Shown: positions 4,030-13,895, numbered from the stretch's first letter. The stretch: 64,000 bases of DNA from an uncultured Chloroflexia bacterium (GCA_963700285.1 CAVOXA010000010.1:1184001-1248000); one strand, 5' to 3'. The notes: generated by a model from the letters alone, not told the origin. A program made the numbers and translations.

Positions 4030-4947
4030 ATGAAAAAGCTGCTTCCAGCCCTCTCGCGGGGCATGCTAGTCTTGGGGTTCGTACTCATCCTAGCTGGTTT
4101 GGGATGGGGCATCTGGACGCGCCTCAACGCACCGCCGCCGCCCGTCATCAGCGACCAGGGAGCCATCGTGCTGGCTATCACCGCGCCTATCCGACCCACG
4201 GATACCGGGCCTGAGCCTGAAGCAGCTCTGCCAACTGCGCCAGAGCCAACCAGGGCAGCCCCCACAAATACCCTGACACCATTTCCAACCCAAACACCGC
4301 CAGATAGTGGGGCGACACCAGCTCTGCTGCCCTCGTTCCCTGATGCCACAAGTACCGCAGATCCGGCGCCAACAGCGACACCGACGGCACAACCACCCGA
4401 GAACACACCCCGGCCTACGGCAACGCCTACGCCGACACCCACCCTGCCGCCCATGGCCGAGGAGCCGCCTTCACGTATCGTAGCGCCAACAATCAAAATG
4501 GATGCAAAAGTCGTGCCCATGGCGTGGGAGATGGTGGATCAGAACGGCACACTGGTGCCTGAATGGGTTGTGCCCAAGAACGCCGCCGGCTGGCACATAA
4601 ACTCGGCGCTGCCCGGACACCAGGAGAACGTGGTCGTCTCAGGACACCATAACATCGATGGCAAGGTTTTTCGCTACGTGGTGGATCTAAACATGGGCGA
4701 CGAGATCACGATATACGCTGGCGAAACCCCCTACACCTATACCGTCACCGAAAAGTATATCCTGAAAGAGGCGGGGATGCCCCTGAACGTGCGCAAGCAA
4801 AACGCCCAGTGGATCATGCCTGGCGGCGAGGAAAAGCTAACGCTGGTCACCTGCTGGCCCTATGAATATCCGGGCAATTCTCACCGCGTGATCGTCGTGG
4901 CCAGGCCAGAAGGCTATACGAACCCCGACGAGCCGACACGTCAATAG
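4030..4947 (+). CDS. Sortase with N-terminal membrane anchor and Pro/Thr linker
   Basis: Catalytic triad context SGHHN, LTLVTC, HRVIVVA. Alternative in-frame start at GTG 3961. Confidence 0.88.
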   Translation: MKKLLPALSRGMLVLGFVLILAGLGWGIWTRLNAPPPPVISDQGAIVLAITAPIRPTDTGPEPEAALPTAPEPTRAAPTNTLTPFPTQTPPDSGATPALLPSFPDATSTADPAPTATPTAQPPENTPRPTATPTPTPTLPPMAEEPPSRIVAPTIKMDAKVVPMAWEMVDQNGTLVPEWVVPKNAAGWHINSALPGHQENVVVSGHHNIDGKVFRYVVDLNMGDEITIYAGETPYTYTVTEKYILKEAGMPLNVRKQNAQWIMPGGEEKLTLVTCWPYEYPGNSHRVIVVARPEGYTNPDEPTRQ

Positions 4948-4992
4948 CGCCACCCTGCTCAAGAGCAGGTCAGGTATCGCCCCTTGTGAGAC

Positions 4993-5232
4993 TCAAAGCT
5001 CATCTTCCTTGACCCACAGTTCCAGGAGGGTCAGGATCAGCCACAGCAGGCCAAAGATGCCGGCACCCCCCAACAAACAGGCGACGGCCGTAACCGCCGC
5101 AGTGCCGCCATAGATCAACCATACCAGACCGCCGCCAATCCCCAGCATGACCAGCAAGCCGCCAATGACAAGCCTGGACTGTGTCTGCCGTCGATGTCGA
5201 TTGGTATTGAACGAACGAGACTGCTTCCTCAT
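4993..5232 (-). CDS. Small two-helix membrane protein
   Basis: Basic N-terminus, two hydrophobic segments and a purine-rich RBS-like region. Confidence 0.65.
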   Translation of the reverse strand: MRKQSRSFNTNRHRRQTQSRLVIGGLLVMLGIGGGLVWLIYGGTAAVTAVACLLGGAGIFGLLWLILTLLELWVKEDEL

Positions 5233-5339
5233 ATCTGAATCCTGCTTTCGCGCGCCCTCCTACCCCAGCTCCGCCCTTCCCTGTAGGATCCAGGACATTG
5301 CTTCCAGGGAGTCACACTCCACGGGGAAGGACTTTTCCA

Positions 5340-5650
5340 GCGCTGCCTGTGGATAACTTGGGAAAACCTGTGGAAAACCCAATGCGTTTGTGGACAATAC
5401 GGTCCGTTTTGAGTCTTTCCCCCTGGCTCTGCAACCAACTGTCCGTTTCCCGTACTTTCCCCAGATCTCATCCACACCCGATGGGGACAGACGGAACCCA
5501 GGGATAGTAGTTGGAAGAGCGGCACCCACAAGGGACAGCAAGCTGGCGCCCAGCACAGGGCATTATCCACATATAAACAAGGCCTACTAGTGCTACTATA
5601 TCTAGATATACTAAAGGGAAAGAATATATGATAGAGGAAAAACCCACAGT
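5340..5650. other. Candidate chromosomal replication origin (oriC)
   Basis: DnaA boxes TGTGGATAA 5348-5356, TGTGGAAAA 5369-5377, TGTGGACAA 5389-5397, TCATCCACA 5468-5476 and TTATCCACA 5563-5571. These are followed by GGCC (5581-5584), TAC-TAG-TGC-TAC-TAT trios and an AT-rich tract. Confidence 0.7.
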
Positions 5651-5702
5651 GCAAAACTATGACATTGAACATCACTGGACCCATGTATAGGCTTTGCCTT
5701 CT

Positions 5703-6743
5703 CTAGTTACCAATTCTGTTGTCCCAGACACGATCTTGATTGGCTTGCATCTTTTCCCGGTAGGCTTTGTCCAGATTAACTCCTGTATAGTTGGCCAACT
5801 TGAGCAGGTAGGCCATGCAATCTGCCAGTTCTGAGGCCAACGCTTTCTGCCTGTCACCAAGAGCGTGCTGGAGAGCTTGTGCTGCGGGCTGACCCGCTGC
5901 TACCCTTGCCTCCTGGGCCCTCCACAGTTTCGCCAGTTCACTGCCCAGTTCCCCCATTTCTTCGCCCAAGCATAGATAGTTAAAATACACGTTGGTGTTG
6001 AACCCTTTTGCCCTGTCCAGTTCGACGTGGAGTTCTTGGTATTCTCGCAATTGTCCTTCCTGGGGTTTCTGACTGGGGGCGGGAGCAGAGACCTCGAACT
6101 CTGGCAAGGAACGTTGAAAGGTCCCTTGCTGTAGCCCGCTGTTTATTCGTTCCAGGATCGATTGAAAATCGCTTGTCCGGGTAATGATGTTGAGCTGGTT
6201 GGTATCAATCGCCAGAACTTGCGAATCGGTGTATTCAAAAAAGAACTGTTCGTAAACCTGTCTCAGCTCGTTGATATAGGCTCGATCCATGTCTCGCTCG
6301 TAGGTCCGGTCACGCTGGGTGATCCTATCCATCAGGACATCGGTATCGGCCTGCAAATAGACGATCAGGTCTGCTGCCGGAATATGATCGGCCAGCGCTT
6401 TGTGAACTTGCTGATAGACCTCCCACTCGTCGCCCTTCAAGTTCAGGCGGGCAAACAACCTGTCCTTGTCAAACATATAGTCCATGACAAGCGCCCCTTG
6501 GTTCAGAAGAGGAGGCACCTGCTGCTGCTGACGGTATCGACTGAGCAGGAAAAACATCTGTGTTTGAAACGCATAGCGATCGCGATCTCGGTAGAAATCG
6601 GCAAGAAAAGGGTTCTCCTCAAAGACTTCCAGCAGGAGACCAGCGTGATAGTGATCTCTCAGCATCCGGGCAAGGGTCGTTTTGCCCACGCCGATGGCGC
6701 CCTCGATGATGATATGCCATGACCTGTTCGTGGTGGTTATCAA
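5703..6743 (-). CDS. Deoxynucleoside kinase fused to a MazG-like NTP pyrophosphohydrolase
   Basis: dNK motifs IIIEGAIGVGKTT, NPFLADFY, FQTQMFFLLSR and RDRTYE; MazG motifs LGEEMGEL and ELADC...LANYTGVNL. TTG 6743 follows GAGGAGG. Confidence 0.85.
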   Translation of the reverse strand: MITTTNRSWHIIIEGAIGVGKTTLARMLRDHYHAGLLLEVFEENPFLADFYRDRDRYAFQTQMFFLLSRYRQQQQVPPLLNQGALVMDYMFDKDRLFARLNLKGDEWEVYQQVHKALADHIPAADLIVYLQADTDVLMDRITQRDRTYERDMDRAYINELRQVYEQFFFEYTDSQVLAIDTNQLNIITRTSDFQSILERINSGLQQGTFQRSLPEFEVSAPAPSQKPQEGQLREYQELHVELDRAKGFNTNVYFNYLCLGEEMGELGSELAKLWRAQEARVAAGQPAAQALQHALGDRQKALASELADCMAYLLKLANYTGVNLDKAYREKMQANQDRVWDNRIGN

Positions 6744-6804
6744 GGGATTTTCCTCCTCGGGCACGTGCTTTCGGGCCCCATCAGCTAGATTGCATGTCTC
6801 TGCA

Positions 6805-8397
6805 TCAGTTCCCGCTTTCCCATCTGGTCTTGATCCGGACTCGATAAACAGAATCTTGCCCTTCCTGCGGAAAGTCAAACCACTCTTCCCATGGTGCGGC
6901 AGGATCTGTGGCATAGATCGGCCTGCGCATGAAATTGCTCGTGATCAGGTCGCGAACCAGGTCATTCGTTGTTACGTCCGCGCCATGCGGTTCGTTCAGT
7001 ACAAGGTCCGGGTATAAATGCCGTACCAGCTCGCGGTACCAGATATAGGCCAGGAGCGGCCCGCTGACCACGGCCACGTCGGGTCGCTGCTCTTCGGCAT
7101 AGACGGCATACCACAGGGCAAAAGTGGGGCCATCGCCCCGGACAACCACCAATCCCTCCGGGCCCACGCCCTCCAGTACCTGCTGGATGTAGGTATGGAC
7201 CGATAGATCGTCGCTCAGATCGGCCTCTTGCCAGTTCAGGGCAAGGGACAGAAAAGGCAGGGCAAGAATCACAATCAGCGCCAGGTTCTGCCATCCTGTT
7301 TGCAGGCGCCGGGTCAGGCTCAGCAGGTAGCGGGCTCCTTCACCCCACCAGAGAGCCAGCAGTAGGAAGGGCGGCAGCAGATAGACGTGGGAGTCCCCGG
7401 TATCATAGAAAAAGGCATAGATGCCAACGATCAGCATCCAGACCAGACAAAAGATGGCAAATCGCCTGTCTCGCTGCCACCAGCTCCATCCGCCAATGAG
7501 GGTGATGGCCAGGCCCCACCATCCGAACTGGCTGCCCAACAGCAGCGCCCAATTTCCGATCCTTCCGGGGATATCCCCAGGATCAAGGCCAAACGCGAAT
7601 ACCTGGTACTGTTCGGCTGTGACTACCCACTTGAATTGGTCCCAGGTCTGGGGATTGCCCCAGTTGACTGGGGGGTAGCTTCTTGCCGCCAATGGCAGAT
7701 AGGCATAGACCGCCAATCCCAAGAAAAAGAAGACAATGGCCGGGAGCAAGGTCCGCGGGCCAAGGATTCTCTTCCCCTCTGTACGAATTCTCCCCCAGAT
7801 CAGAAACAGAGCTGCCGGAAGGGCCAAGGCCAGGGTCAGGTGGTTGCCTAGCCCCAGTCCCACGACAAAGGCCGCCAGCCAGAAGGCCCGGTCGCCGCTG
7901 CCCTCCCGCCAGCGGACCAAAAGCCAGAGAAAAAGGGCCGCAAAGAACGCTAGCAGCGCATAGACCTCGGCGATCACGGCTTGTGACCAAAAAAGGAGGG
8001 AGAAGGCGTAAGTCAGCGCGGTGGCTGCCGATAGGGGCAAGGTGTAGCGGTCATCAGGGAGCAGGTGTTGCGTTGTACGACACAGGAACCCTACGGCGCC
8101 GGCAGCGAAAATCGCTGACAGGAGGTTTACTCGATAGGCGATGGTACCCACCGGCAGGTTGCTGAACAGCCAGGCCAGCAGCGTATAGGTCGGATAGCCG
8201 GTGGGATGTGGCACTCCCAGCGTCCGGGCCGCCGTGATCAGGTCTCCGCTGTCGGTACCGTGGTTCTCGAAAGTGAGCCCTGGGGCCAGGGTGGACAGAT
8301 AGACTGCCAAAGTTATTATCGCTACGCCTACGGCCAGCCACCGGCCCTGGCGGTCGCGGGGGTGAGAAAGCTGTATAGCATTAAGCCGAGTTGCTAT
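6805..8397 (-). CDS. DUF2723-domain membrane protein (TMEM260/GT-C-like putative protein O-glycosyltransferase)
   Basis: DSGDL...LGVPHPTGYPTY, WSQAVIAEVY, GLGNH and NWGNP motifs with many TM helices. The frame is open upstream of the track start (8310); the true start is uncertain (possible ATA at 8397). Confidence 0.8.
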   Translation of the reverse strand: MATRLNAIQLSHPRDRQGRWLAVGVAIITLAVYLSTLAPGLTFENHGTDSGDLITAARTLGVPHPTGYPTYTLLAWLFSNLPVGTIAYRVNLLSAIFAAGAVGFLCRTTQHLLPDDRYTLPLSAATALTYAFSLLFWSQAVIAEVYALLAFFAALFLWLLVRWREGSGDRAFWLAAFVVGLGLGNHLTLALALPAALFLIWGRIRTEGKRILGPRTLLPAIVFFFLGLAVYAYLPLAARSYPPVNWGNPQTWDQFKWVVTAEQYQVFAFGLDPGDIPGRIGNWALLLGSQFGWWGLAITLIGGWSWWQRDRRFAIFCLVWMLIVGIYAFFYDTGDSHVYLLPPFLLLALWWGEGARYLLSLTRRLQTGWQNLALIVILALPFLSLALNWQEADLSDDLSVHTYIQQVLEGVGPEGLVVVRGDGPTFALWYAVYAEEQRPDVAVVSGPLLAYIWYRELVRHLYPDLVLNEPHGADVTTNDLVRDLITSNFMRRPIYATDPAAPWEEWFDFPQEGQDSVYRVRIKTRWESGN

Positions 8398-8828: not shown

Positions 8829-11800
8829 ATGAATATTCTAAAGCGGAGAAAATTCGAGATCCCATCCGAGGTCAGCGGCCGCCCTGTCACCAATCGTGGC
8901 GTGCACCTGCAGCCCTTTGGATTTCACGGATTCTGGCTTGATCGAGAGAACGAGGACCACTATTGGACTGATCTCTTGAAAGGGATGGGCATGTCATGGG
9001 TGGTGATGCTCACTGAGGGTGACAGCGTCTTGGAAGAGCGCGGTGGGACCACCCCTCTCAATGCCCTGTTGGACGCAGGCGTCATCCCCATTATCCGTGA
9101 CAAACAAAAGCTACCTCGTCCCTTCTCCAATATAGATGCGGTTAAACGTACTGTTCCGGTCTACAGGCAGTATGGATTGCGCCCGTTCTGGCAACTCTAT
9201 AATGAGCCCTTTGATCCTAGGGAGTGGAGAAATGGGGAGGTCCCACCCTACGACGAAGCCTGGGCGATCATTGCTTCCCGGTGGTCTCAGGGGGCGAGGC
9301 AGGTCGCGGATGCGGGCGCCTATGTCGGCTTTCCCGATGGGCCTGGCTACGATGAGAACCCGTACGAGAAGCTGCGTCCAGCCGGGGGACTGGACGTTTT
9401 TGATGAGGGTATGGCTTTTTATGCGCCCCACACCTACGGCAAGGGCCGGCCCCTGTGGTATCCTTATGATGCGGTTACCCGCCACGCTGCCTTGCTAACC
9501 GATGAGGCATACCTCCGCTTGCTGGATGACTTTGCCGATGAGCCAAATTGGTACGACGCGCCCCTGGAATTCCTCAACGCCCAACGTCGGGGGTGGGCCA
9601 ATCCGGACCGGACAGCCCTCGATGATGATACCTGTTGGCGCGGCTGGGAAAAGATTGTAGCCTGGTCCATCGAGTCCCTGGGTTATGTCCCTCCCCTGGC
9701 CATGACAGAAGGGGGATGGACACCCCGTGACCGGGCAGGGTCCAATCCTGTGGACGCACGCTGGCCCTACTCCACGCCCAAGATGGTGGCCAAAAAGACG
9801 CTGCATATGTATGATACGCCATCGCCTTTTTTCGCCATTTGTCCCTGGCTGGTGGCCAGCGAGGATATGGGCGGTGCTGGCTGGTACGACGATGCCTGGC
9901 ACGGTGGGGCGTTCAGCCAGACCTACGGGCGCAAAAAACCGGTCATCCTCACCCTGGAGCAAGTCCCGCCCAAAGAGGTCGAACCTCGGACAGAGCCCCT
10001 GGTCATCGATGTGGATGGCGATACCCGCGATTGGGACTGGGCCGAGACAGCCTACGGGGCCGGCTACCGGCGGGGCGAGACCTCGCTGCGGCTCATCGAG
10101 GTCCACGAGTACGAGGGGCCTACGACTCTGGATGTCATTGTGGTAGACGTTGATGGTCTGCCCATCGAGGGAGTCGAGTTCTATTACCACTATCCCGGCG
10201 CCTCGTCCATTGGCAGCGGCGAATGGTATGACCGGGGCGTGGCGGCTACCTCCGACCAGGCCGGCCGCATTCACTTTGCAGCATCCGAGAATGGCGGGGA
10301 GTGTGTGCCCGGCACCTGTCAGGGCGCCATCTGGCCGGCAGGGAAGGGGGATGTCCTGGACCATCTGGGCTTCCTGGCCGGCACGCAGAACCGTCACCTC
10401 AATGGTGTGTGGCAGTGGCTGGAGGATGGACCTGAACCCGAACCTGAACCTGAACCCGAACCTGAACCCGAACCTGAACCCGAACCTGAACCTGAACCCG
10501 AACCTGAACCTGAACCCGAACCTGAACCCGAACCTGAACCCGAGCCCGGCCCATACGTCGATCCTCGCATTGAACCCTTCCTCACCCTGGACCTGAGTGG
10601 GGACACCTACAAGTTGGTCGAGGTCCTGTGGTACGATCCCCATGAGTCTGGCGGGAAGCACCTTATCTTCCTCGACGTCGTCGATGAGGATGGGCAGCGG
10701 CTGGCCGGTGAGAAAGTGGTCATATCTTGGCCAGGTGGCCAGGCGCCCGTGACGATTGAGGAGAAACCTGGCGAGCTCTGGGGCGGAAGCTTTGGCATGT
10801 CCGCCACGTTGGGCGCTTACGCTGCCCGTGTCGCTCCAGAAAGTGGTACCTCGGATGCCGTGGCTGGTTTGGGCAGGGGGACGCCTGAGGAGCCGGATGT
10901 CATGCACGCTACCTCTTTTGGCATCACCTTCAAAAAGCTCTCCGAGCCTGAACCGGAGCCGGAGCCGGAGCCAGAGCCTGAACCGGAACCTGAGCCTGAA
11001 CCGGAGCCAGAGCCTGAACCGGAGCCTGAGCCAGAGCCTGAACCTGAACCGGAGCCAGAGCCTGAACCTGAACCGGAGCCTGAACCTGAACCGGAGCCAG
11101 AGCCTGAGCCTGAACCCGAGCCTGGTCCCTATGTCGACCCGCGTATCGAGTCTTTCCTGACGCTGGATCTTGGCGGGGATACGTACAAGTTGGAGGAAGT
11201 CCTGTGGTACGATCCCGACGAGTCGGGCGGTAAGCACCACATCTTTCTCGACGTGGTTAATGGCGAGGGCAATCGTCTGGCCGGGGAAAAGGTGATCGTG
11301 TCGTGGTCAGGTGGCCAGGTTCCCGTGACCATCGAGGAGAAACCTGGCGAGCCCTGGGGCGGCAATTTTGGTATGTTCGCCACGTTGGGCTCCTATGCCG
11401 TTCGCGTTGATCCAGAGACCGGATCGTCGGATGCTGTGAGTGGCCTGGGCTTGGGCACGCCCGAGGAGCCGAATATCAAGCACCATACCTCCTTTGGCAT
11501 CACCTTCAAAAAGCTCTCTGAGCCGGAACCTGAACCTGAGCCGGAACCAGAACCCGAGCCTGAGCCGGAACCAGAACCCGAGCCTGAGCCGGAACCAGAA
11601 CCTGAACCAGAACCTGAACCAGAGCCGGAGCCCGGTCCCGATGTCGACCCGCGTATTGAGCCCTTTCTCACTCTGGATCTCAGCGGGGACACCTACAAGC
11701 TGGTGGAGATTCTGTGGTATGACCCCGCAGAATCAGGGGGGCGACACCATATCTTTTTCGACGTCGTTGACGAGGTAGGGCAGCGGTTGGCCGGGGAAAA

Positions 11801-13895
11801 AGTGATCGTATCCTGGCCAGGCGGCCAGGTCCCCATCATCATCGAGGAAAAGCCCGGTGAGCCGTGGGGGGGCAACTTTGGTATGGCGGCGACGCTGGGT
11901 ACCTACACTGCGCGTGTTGCCCCTGAAAGCGGCTCATCGGATGTTGTCAGTGGGCTGGGCCGGGGGACGCCCGAGGAGCCCAATGTGAACCACGCTACCT
12001 CTTTTGGCATCACCTTCAAAAAGCTCTCCGAGCCAGAACCCGAGCCGGAACCCGAACCGGAACCGGAGCCTGAGCCTGAACCGGAGCCCAATGGCAACAA
12101 CCTTGGCTTCTATGTCGAAGCCACCAACGTCGCCGGCTTGCCGGAGGCCATCCGGGATGTCAAGCCTCCTACCCTGCTGACCCACGCCAACGATCGGGGG
12201 CTGCTGCAGTGGATCCGCCGCGAGCTTTCGCCCGACACCTTTGTCATCGGCCGCCTGCACGTCGACCAGCACGTACAGGATGCGTGGCTGACCAGCGGCG
12301 ACCCCGCGGGCAAAGGGCGCGAGTTCGCGGAAACGATCCTCCGCCTCGATATGGGGCTGGCCCTCGAGCGGGGGGCCAACGGCCGGCTGTTGATCGACGC
12401 CTGGATGAGTCTCAACGAGTGCGTACCTGGGCCTGAATCCAATGCCTACCTGGGGGGCAGCGATGAGGATCGGGCCAAGATCCGGGCCAAAGCCGACGCC
12501 TACGACCGCTTCATGGTCGCCTTCCTGCAGCGCCTCAAGCAGGAGGACGGCGATCTGGATGCCGTGGCCTTTAACTTTGGGGCGGGCAACTTTCAGACGG
12601 CCGCCGGCTATCTGGACTGGTTCCCCCGTACGTTGGCCTCCCATACTTATCTGGGCTTTCACGAATATGGCTGGCGGGCGCTCTCCGCGCATCTGGACCC
12701 CAACACCGCCTCGGCCGCGGGCTTTTACCGGCCCTGCATGGCCGGAATCCGGCAGGCCTACGGCACCCATCAAAAGGCCATCATCACGGAGGCCGGCCTG
12801 GCCCGGTTGTACAAGCATATCGAGTTTCCCCCTGGCGACGTTGGCTGGCTGTACGAGGGCGAGACCATCAGCCAGGACGATTATTGGGCGTCACTGGCCT
12901 GGTACAACAGTATGCTTCTCCGGGACCGCTACGTGTTGGGCTCCTGCCTTTTTAACGTCGGCCACTCGGGCAAGTGGGTGACTTTCCGCCACCTGGGCAA
13001 AGACAACGACGGACAATGGATTACGATCATCGACCGGATCGCCGCCCTTAGCGCGCCGCGTGCCCCGCTCCTGCTGGAGCCGCCCTCGCTGGTGACGTTG
13101 CAGGGCCGTGTCCTCAACCAGGAGGATCGTGATGCCCTGGACAAACAGCAGGTTCCCGGTTCCATGATCCGGCTCATCGGCTCGCCCCATACCTTGGGCG
13201 CCGACCCGCGCGCGGCTGCGTTCGACACTGATGCCGTCAGTTGGACGCGGCGCATCAAAGGCTTCCGGGGCAGCGTCTGGAACTGCTGGCAGAAGTATGT
13301 CGAGCGCGAGGTGGCCGGCATTACCTGGGAGGAGTTCAAGGACGGTGTCGTGAAGCAAAATCCGTCTTTGGGTAACTCTGGAGGCCGGTTCAAGGCCAAG
13401 CGCAGGTACTATCTTCCTGAGAACCGGAAACTGGACGACCCGCAAGGCGAACGACCGGAGATCGAATGGGATCGGCTCCTGACCGGCTTCCGTGGAACTC
13501 GCTGGGATTGCTGGCAAAAATACGTCCGCGGCAAGGTAGTCGGTCTGGACTGGCATGCCTTCAAATCAAAGGTCGTGAGACGGAACCCCCAACTGGCCGG
13601 GGATGGCAACCGTTTTGTTCCCCGAGAACGCTACGTGCTGCCCCGCAATGCCGGCCAGTACGAGTACATGCTCGTGGCCTATGCCAACGCCCGAGGGCGC
13701 TACCGCTTCGAATCGCTATTGCCCGGTCTCTACACTGTCGAGGTTACTTCCCCCGGTTCCCAGTCGCTGCGGCGCCAGATCGAGATCAAGGCTGATACCA
13801 CCCTCGATCTGGAGATTGAGCCGCTGCACCGGCAGCCCCTTCCGAGAGGCCAAGATGAAGGACGAGGTCAAGACAAGGCAGAAACTGATCGCTGA
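8829..13895 (+). CDS. 1688-aa modular protein: two GH-A-like TIM barrels, three ~130-aa repeats, (PE)n linkers and a C-terminal beta-sandwich with two LysM-like inserts
   Basis: YNEP...MTEGGW and LNE...HEYGW...ITEAG resemble clan GH-A acid/base and nucleophile motifs. Three copies of VDPRIE.FLTLDL...GITFKKLS and two copies of W.R...GFRG..W.CWQKYV...NP.L. Function is inferred. Confidence 0.7.
10431..10550 (+). repeat. (Pro-Glu)n coding tract 1
   Basis: Tandem CCT/CCC GAA hexamers. Confidence 0.95.
10944..11125 (+). repeat. (Pro-Glu)n coding tract 2
   Basis: Tandem CCN GAR hexamers. Confidence 0.95.
11520..11636 (+). repeat. (Pro-Glu)n coding tract 3
   Basis: Tandem CCN GAR hexamers. Confidence 0.95.
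12028..12090 (+). repeat. (Pro-Glu)n coding tract 4
   Basis: Tandem CCN GAR hexamers. Confidence 0.95.

Follow-up and report, generated by a model that had tools for sequence, protein, structure and literature searches.

In E. coli, the replication origin oriC lies between gidA and mioC, roughly 40 kb from dnaA, and in Caulobacter the origin Cori lies at hemE; neither of them is linked to dnaA. E. coli also carries datA and DARS, clusters of about five DnaA boxes that are likewise found away from dnaA. The origin of B. subtilis is bipartite and is made up of incAB and incC. Origins away from dnaA, although uncommon, are already established (Ori-Finder 2022), and the basal unwinding system (BUS) known from B. 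subtilis is reported in Pelliciari (2021) to be broadly conserved. In Table S1 of that study, where it is printed as the complement, the B. subtilis BUS reads AATAGGTGT / TTAGGTGT / CCGG / GATGATAATGAAGATGAT with a spacer of 12 (Pelliciari 2021), which agrees with the string given for it in an earlier note on the DNA described here. The search rule given for such a unit asks for three or more NAN trios no farther than 16 bp from a DnaA box that has at most two mismatches, and the rule for tandem boxes is a pair with the better box upstream (Pelliciari 2021). In the B. subtilis experiments described by Richardson (2019), the orientation of the proximal box toward the trios is obligatory, and distal boxes are described as acting in either orientation at 132-462 bp, possibly by a DNA loop (Richardson 2019, Pelliciari 2021).

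Here we describe a locus that is very probably the single chromosomal oriC of an Anaerolineae genome (Chloroflexota), with the form of a compact, canonical BUS that lies far from dnaA. It occupies positions 5340-5650 of the window, which is the whole 64-kb stretch of DNA analysed (G000:C10:1184001-1248000). The genome assembly, G000, comprises 7,051,438 bp in 22 contigs and is 89% complete with 6.5% contamination; the host class was taken as Anaerolineae, and a second genome of the same genus, G001, was used for comparison. Since unlinked origins are known and the BUS is conserved, the candidate is a further case of an established kind.

Anatomy of the candidate origin

The candidate sits in a 470-bp intergenic region (window 5233-5702). 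DnaA boxes were searched for as TTATCCACA with at most one mismatch on both strands of the 64-kb window, and five of them fall within 5348-5571 (224 bp), two being perfect and three having one mismatch. Three are on the minus strand and face left, and two are on the plus strand and face right. The features of the locus and its two flanking genes are as follows.

4993..5232, minus strand: gene for a 79-aa small membrane protein with two hydrophobic stretches (left flank); kept in the family
5348..5356, minus strand: distal DnaA box 1, perfect TTATCCACA; invariant in 12/12 aligned family origins
5369..5377, minus strand: distal DnaA box 2, TTTTCCACA, one mismatch, 21 bp from box 1; kept in the family alignment
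5389..5397, minus strand: distal DnaA box 3, TTGTCCACA, one mismatch, 20 bp from box 2; kept in the family alignment
5468..5476, plus strand: middle DnaA box, TCATCCACA, one mismatch, after AGATCT; ATCCACA nearly invariant in the family alignment
5522..5530, plus strand: putative low-affinity box, GCACCCACA, three mismatches; CCACAAG block kept in most alignment rows
5563..5571, plus strand: proximal DnaA box, perfect TTATCCACA, facing the trios
5572..5579, plus strand: degenerate second tandem box, the 8-mer TATAAACA; TATCCACA or AATCCACA in other genera
5580..5583, no strand: G+C-rich spacer AGGC of 4 bp; 4 bp in 12/12 family origins
5584..5598, minus strand: five in-phase DnaA-trios, GAT GAT CAC GAT GAT (bottom strand, 3'->5')
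5593..5642, no strand: AT-rich tract, 74% AT, predicted DNA unwinding element; 50-bp maximum of the 64-kb window
5703..6914, minus strand: gene for a 403-aa deoxynucleoside kinase (dNK; right flank); dNK 136.6 bits

All parts of the anatomy that the earlier note had described, namely at least five opposed boxes, tandem boxes, a spacer, trios and an AT-rich tract, are present in the sequence. On the top strand, the trios read CTA CTA GTG CTA CTA (5584-5598), so that trio 3 is CAC, and the 8-mer and the 4 bp together give a spacer of 12 between the perfect proximal box and the first trio. Set against the BUS search rule, the locus has a perfect box, this spacer of 12, and an unbroken series of five trios that all have A at the centre, four being GAT. 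Set against the rule for tandem boxes and their orientation, TTATCCACA is followed by TATAAACA, both on the plus strand and reading into the trios. The AT content of the tract, 74% in a genome of 61% G+C, is reached by just 109 genome segments, or 1.2e-4 of 50-bp windows. A box cluster beyond chance and an adjoining AT-rich tract, two of the marks of an oriC, are found together at 5340-5650.

Several other observations were made in and around the intergenic region. A purine-rich AAGGGA-like motif lies at window 5610-5625, some 15-25 nt past trio 5, and is also seen at this position in several other family origins (L007-L009, L017). The AT-rich tracts of relatives (L009-L011, L014, L019, L026) repeatedly contain GATC or AGATC(T) words, which that of the window lacks; in the window, AGATCT occurs a single time, at 5463-5468, right before the middle box. 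An Rfam scan of 4900-5800 returned no family above threshold, and a sub-threshold ribozyme match (22.5 bits against a cut-off of 37) was taken as chance. A 151-aa ORF that runs over the origin on the minus strand (5229-5684) was rejected as a gene, because the alignment of G000 with G001 contains a 1-nt indel there and because conservation within the ORF tracks the boxes, not codons.

The two flanking genes are those that had been named in the earlier note, a small membrane gene and a dNK gene, with the reservation that the MazG part ascribed to the latter matches below threshold. This dNK has a C-terminal domain of about 140 extra aa, whose match to MazG is below the cut-off (Pfam 20.2 bits, E 7e-4); its matches to MazG and dCTP pyrophosphatase in the PDB are also sub-threshold (E 0.003-0.016). 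Relatives of the Anaerolineaceae type have dNK as a separate protein of some 216 aa. The small membrane protein is found by tblastn at 55-61% identity in 4/7 other family loci. Neither flanking gene is on the Ori-Finder indicator-gene list. Farther to the right, a 1688-aa ORF on the plus strand (window 8829-13895) contains long acidic proline-rich repeats, with five stretches matching the Trypan_PARP profile, and a C-terminal CarboxypepD_reg-like domain; its product is probably a large surface protein.

Uniqueness of the box cluster in the genome

Over the whole 64-kb window, 13 boxes were counted, against 6.25 +/- 2.77 in shuffled sequence, and 4/100 shuffles reached 13. Over the 7,051,438 bp of the assembly there are 787 boxes with at most one mismatch, 12 of them perfect, and the 5340-5650 locus is the sole 300-bp span with at least four. 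When 787 sites were placed at random, a 300-bp span with at least five boxes arose in 0/20,000 trials and one with at least four in 0.49%. The signal is a clustering of boxes, not a window-wide enrichment. One may argue from the window-wide count, which is not significantly above that of the shuffles, that the locus is a chance cluster of box-like words in intergenic DNA, but the random placements, none of which gave five boxes in 300 bp, and the invariance of the box positions across genera, amid spacers that vary, already refute this explanation, and we give it practically no credence.

The assembly was also scanned for a box with at most two mismatches followed, after a spacer of 2-16 bp, by at least four GAT among six trios. 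Across the 7.05 Mb, this box-plus-trio scan returned the candidate locus alone; its lone runner-up has a 2-mismatch box, three GAT, and 28% AT. The only other 3-box span in the genome, at C22:195200, was discarded as a coding ELW..DG repeat. Coding repeats of the form ELW(R/K)S(D/N)GT at G000:C22:195200-195510 produce DnaA-box-like words (TGTGGAGAA, TGTGGAAAA), and these ELW-type repeats on C22 are a source of false box clusters in G000.

Conservation in the family

A plain DNA search with the 470-bp region found matches in 8/22 other genomes of the same family, including G001 (81% identity over 390 bp), and in 0/18 genomes of other families of the class; it is the triple of distal boxes that is matched across genera. 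One plan is seen in all nine oriented loci (9/9): three distal boxes 20-21 bp apart, a spacing also found in relatives, are followed by the middle box, and this in turn by tandem boxes, a spacer of 4 bp, the trios and an AT-rich tract. One family origin, for example, reads TTGTCCACA AATCCACA CCCT CTACTACTACTACTA. In an alignment of 12 family sequences, the boxes and the first trio make up the invariant columns, and the DNA between them varies. GAT is present in 12/12 of these origins at trio 1, in 9/12 at trio 4 and in 10/12 at trio 5, after which the trio register stops. The second tandem box is decayed in this genus (TATAAACA in G000 and TATAGACA in G001); elsewhere it is TATCCACA or AATCCACA.

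Gene neighborhoods are also shared to a large extent. At the seven other family loci, the adjoining genes include dNK in 6/7, a sortase gene in 6/7, and the small membrane gene in 4/7. A full box/trio unit also adjoins dNK in G019 and G012, two more genomes of the family, whereas G015 has a six-box cluster beside dNK and G011 has no boxes at dNK.

Location of dnaA, dnaN and parB

As the earlier note had stated, the window contains neither dnaA nor dnaN. The dnaA gene was found on another contig, at C1:627198-628658 (Bac_DnaA 236.5 bits, plus Bac_DnaA_C and DnaA_N), where it has a DUF4350/ABC-auxiliary gene upstream and a convergent valS downstream, and dnaN is not adjacent to it. The dnaN gene lies on the same contig as the candidate, at C10:1463262-1463621, about 274-275 kb away. 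On C1, which is 1.85 Mb long, dnaA has 627 kb or more of sequence on either side, and if C1 and C10 abut, oriC and dnaA would be separated by about 1.59 Mb or more, assuming a single chromosome and correct assembly. The candidate therefore does not occupy the classical place of an origin, the intergenic DNA flanking dnaA. There is a single 2-mismatch box in the 450 bp upstream of dnaA, four 1-mismatch boxes are scattered over the 18 kb around the gene, and no box with at most one mismatch was found in the 3.4-kb dnaN locus. The assembly scan gave no box cluster or box/trio unit in the regions of dnaA or dnaN.

The best parS-like site, with a perfect 14-nt palindromic core, is at C10:1464165, which is 275 kb away from the origin and, relative to dnaN, about 0.5 kb upstream; it is one of only two 16-mers with at most two mismatches. 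parB is at C10:1774462, 585 kb from the candidate. That dnaN, parB and the parS-like site share contig C10 with the candidate was counted in favor of its being oriC.

Occurrence across the class

To survey the class, the pattern TCCACAWATCCACNNNNNCTA was searched with at most one mismatch in 201 genomes, which gave 52 matches in 50/201 genomes, mostly one per genome; a reversed control pattern gave 7 matches. Among 30 loci taken from this survey, 21 have at least four boxes in 400 bp. In 9 of the 30, all of them among the 21 box-rich loci, the unit lies just downstream of dnaA, the classical origin position. The other 12/21 box-rich loci have no dnaA within 1.5 kb; two of these come from this family and ten from elsewhere, and the contexts of the ten comprise Clp1-type P-loop genes (three loci), transketolase, TsaD, NUDIX and others. 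The dnaA-unlinked state (12/21 origin-like loci) is less unusual in the class than the earlier note implied.

The association with dNK extends beyond the family. Among the best 80 dNK loci, 31 have a cluster of at least four boxes within 300 bp downstream of dNK, and none has dnaA or dnaN within 2.5 kb. Box-cluster counts were used here instead of a stricter BUS regular expression, which matched 7/80 dNK loci and missed one with a clear BUS (L093). In MAGs labelled Anaerolineaceae or Pelolinea, the cluster has up to 10 boxes and is found roughly 1 kb beyond dNK, with a 334-aa ORF in between; it ends in TTTTCCACA TATCCACA GTCC CTACTATTAATACTA. The 334-aa and 342-aa ORFs that flank this Pelolinea-type origin have no Pfam family and gave no tblastn match in 37 loci (L008-L014, L096-L125).

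A wider proposal can be put forward tentatively, and we regard it as rather unlikely: the Anaerolineae origin may be a portable module of about 300 bp that has exactly five trios in addition to its three phased distal boxes, its middle box and its tandem proximal boxes, and that was repeatedly uncoupled from dnaA and stayed beside dNK in at least two families, which would suggest a selected coupling between origin firing and dNTP salvage. If this proposal were true, origin predictions for Anaerolineae that are based on indicator genes would be systematically misplaced.

Strand bias at the candidate and its homologs

The raw cumulative GC skew on C10 has a broad minimum at 1.13-1.41 Mb, which includes the lowest point at 1.24 Mb, and this signal is weak. 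Gene-orientation bias in G000 is weak as well. For this reason, contigs C1 and C14 of G000 served to train a strand discriminant based on 5-mers. The discriminant is about 93% consistent between contigs: in cross-validation, 68/73 windows of C1 were positive with the model trained on C14 only, and 92.7% of C14 windows were negative with the model trained on C1 only. C1 keeps one sign through dnaA except for one 25-kb blip, and thus there is no strand-bias switch at dnaA. The earlier note had held that a skew switch together with a full box/trio set at dnaA would speak against an origin in the window; the search for this combination did not find it. Along C10, the discriminant changes from segment to segment.

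C10 0-550 kb: mean discriminant -36
C10 550-975 kb: mean discriminant +24
C10 975-1200 kb: mean discriminant -28
C10 1200-1425 kb: mean discriminant -3
C10 1425-1550 kb: mean discriminant +51

The candidate, at 1189 kb of C10, lies where the discriminant goes from negative to near zero or positive, but its cumulative score has the global minimum elsewhere, at about 550 kb. The sharp switch at about 552 kb has no box cluster, and at this point C10:540001-552426 maps to C20 of G001 and C10:552719-560000 to C12 of G001. With a synteny breakpoint and no box cluster, this switch is best read as a rearrangement or misjoin. The change between plus and minus near 975 kb is in DNA collinear with G001, and synteny offers no explanation for it. 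Some 95 kb around the candidate are collinear between G000 and G001, and C10:1340-1423 kb is inverted relative to G001, to which part of the noise in the right arm is due. Either true rearrangements close to the origin or misjoins in the assembly could account for the changes between segments of C10, and rearrangements make the strand-bias signal of this contig ambiguous.

The homologous origin of G001 is at 161.3-161.7 kb of its contig C9. On this contig, the G000-trained discriminant is negative in every window centred at 12-162 kb (-21 to -86), and from 175 kb on it is positive or near zero. In non-overlapping 25-kb windows, the mean is -51 for the six on the left and +15 for the nine on the right (Mann-Whitney p = 0.0013).

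A second comparison comes from G097, a genome of the same class that was found by the class pattern search and is a single contig of 2,756,837 bp. Its box/trio site is at 1,924,618, and its dnaA is 675 kb away, at 2,599,402. The site consists of degenerate distal boxes, then TTATCCAGA TATCCACA GCCC CTACTACTGCTACTA, and then an AT-rich tract; beside it is a 993-aa gene which, from a reading of a reverse-strand stretch by eye, may be helicase-like. GC skew was sampled in forty 20-kb stretches of this genome. It is negative in 19/21 samples between 560 and 1935 kb and positive in 13/19 of the remaining samples (Mann-Whitney p = 0.0002), those from 0-300 kb being noisy. The sign changes at the box/trio site, from -3.7% in the 1915-1935 kb sample to +0.4% in the 1950-1970 kb sample, and the opposite switch is near 530 kb, which leaves arcs of 1.39 and 1.36 Mb. 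No sign change was seen at dnaA in the sampled skew. The earlier note had looked to GC skew for a check on its reading, and the outcome is divided: on contig C10 of the genome itself the skew minimum is broad and the strand bias a mosaic, whereas the homologous sites in G001 and G097 lie at a switch.

These results bear on two further explanations of the locus. It might be a DnaA titration or regulatory site of the datA or DARS kind, or a DnaA-controlled promoter of the small membrane gene, with the true origin elsewhere. The small membrane gene starts 115-165 bp downstream of the three distal boxes, the AT-rich tract contains two promoter-like hexamers where 0.6 are expected, and the strand-bias signal of C10 is not decisive. 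A titration site, however, needs neither five in-register trios at a fixed 4 bp nor an AT-rich tract, and both are kept across genera. In addition, the assembled 7.05 Mb contain no other box cluster or box/trio unit, and the homologous sites lie at a switch of strand bias in G001 and of GC skew in G097. We therefore consider a titration site or promoter improbable. The earlier note had left the choice between a dnaA-distal origin and a titration site, and the sole box cluster and box-plus-trio unit of the assembly, its trios and AT-rich tract, and its homologs at these switches all support the former.

Alternatively, the genome could have another origin besides this locus, or the locus could serve a second large replicon as its origin, while the main origin is unassembled or on another contig. 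We find this very improbable. dnaN, parB and the only parS-like site are all on C10 together with the candidate, the class survey gave mostly one match per genome (52 in 50/201), and G097 has a single site, which is at its skew switch; against these stand the state of the assembly (89% complete, 22 contigs, 6.5% contamination), the location of dnaA on a different contig, and the mosaic of strand-bias segments on C10. With an assembly of this kind, a second origin in unassembled DNA is possible.

Proposed initiation mechanism and helicase loading

If the locus is a dnaA-distal oriC, its mode of action may be outlined by analogy with incC of B. subtilis. Binding of DnaA-ATP to the proximal tandem boxes would be followed by growth of a filament over the GAT trios on the bottom strand, and this filament would stretch the duplex so that it opens into the AT-rich tract. 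The distal boxes, which have the opposite orientation, may raise the local DnaA concentration as proposed for B. subtilis, possibly via a DNA loop.

Helicase loading would probably depend on a DnaD/DnaB_2-like protein and a tandem DnaI/DnaC-like AAA+ protein, both encoded near dnaB. The dnaB gene is at C14:765308 (locus L002, G000:C14:765308-770140), and about 2-3 kb downstream of it are genes for a 288-aa DnaB_2 (DnaD-like) protein and for another of 495 aa that contains two IstB/DnaC/DnaI-like AAA+ domains; a search of the 89%-complete assembly found no DciA. ORFs of about 500 aa with two IstB/DnaC/DnaI-like domains were also seen in 4/5 relatives searched (G011, G015, G035, G041). The tandem AAA+ gene near dnaB fits the domesticated dna[CI] reported for Chloroflexi in Brezellec (2016).

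Implications and comparison with known origins

The candidate leaves the accepted view of initiation unchanged. It very probably locates the replication origin of an uncultured Anaerolineae lineage with a large genome, and it indicates that the geometry of the B. subtilis-type unwinding module has been kept almost base-for-base in Chloroflexota. For genome annotation in Anaerolineae, dnaA would be a poor guide to the origin, and the signature of tandem boxes and five trios, often neighboring dNK, a better one; this bears on origin prediction, replichore-aware genome analysis, and peak-to-trough growth-rate estimates from metagenomes. A limited literature search found no paper on origin position in Anaerolineae and none joining the BUS or DnaA-trios with Chloroflexi. 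Origins predicted in DoriC for two members of the phylum can be compared with the present one. In Table S1 of Pelliciari (2021), the entry for Anaerolinea thermophila UNI-1 has a 2-mismatch box, a spacer of 16, and a trio score of 7, and that for Caldilinea aerophila has three trios and a score of 10, as against 25 for B. subtilis. Both are poor BUS candidates, whereas the unit described here and those of the Anaerolineaceae-labelled MAGs are canonical. The poor scores of these entries, when related MAGs carry canonical units, suggest that the DoriC predictions for A. thermophila and C. aerophila may miss the real site.

Among known systems, the candidate is closest to the incC/BUS region of B. 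subtilis. In both, a perfect 9-mer is followed by an 8-mer as second box and, after a G+C-rich gap of 4 bp, by in-register GAT trios, with a spacer of 12, and they also have in common an AT-rich tract, proximal boxes that face the trios, and extra distal boxes, here about 170-215 bp upstream. There are differences in detail: five trios are present in the candidate, compared with six GAT-like trios followed by an A-run in B. subtilis, and the second box of the candidate is more degenerate. The candidate is also not divided as incAB and incC are, but is a single compact region of about 300 bp, and it does not lie between dnaA and dnaN.

The candidate differs from datA and DARS in having trios and an unwinding tract, in being the sole cluster of its genome, and in having homologs at skew switches; a datA-like site would be a cluster that accompanies a separate oriC and has no unwinding module, which is not what was found here. 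In the separation of origin and initiator gene on the chromosome, it resembles E. coli oriC and Caulobacter Cori, although its neighbors, a small membrane gene and a dNK gene, are unlike theirs. This separation, at least 0.6 Mb in G000 and 675 kb in G097, is far above the E. coli figure.
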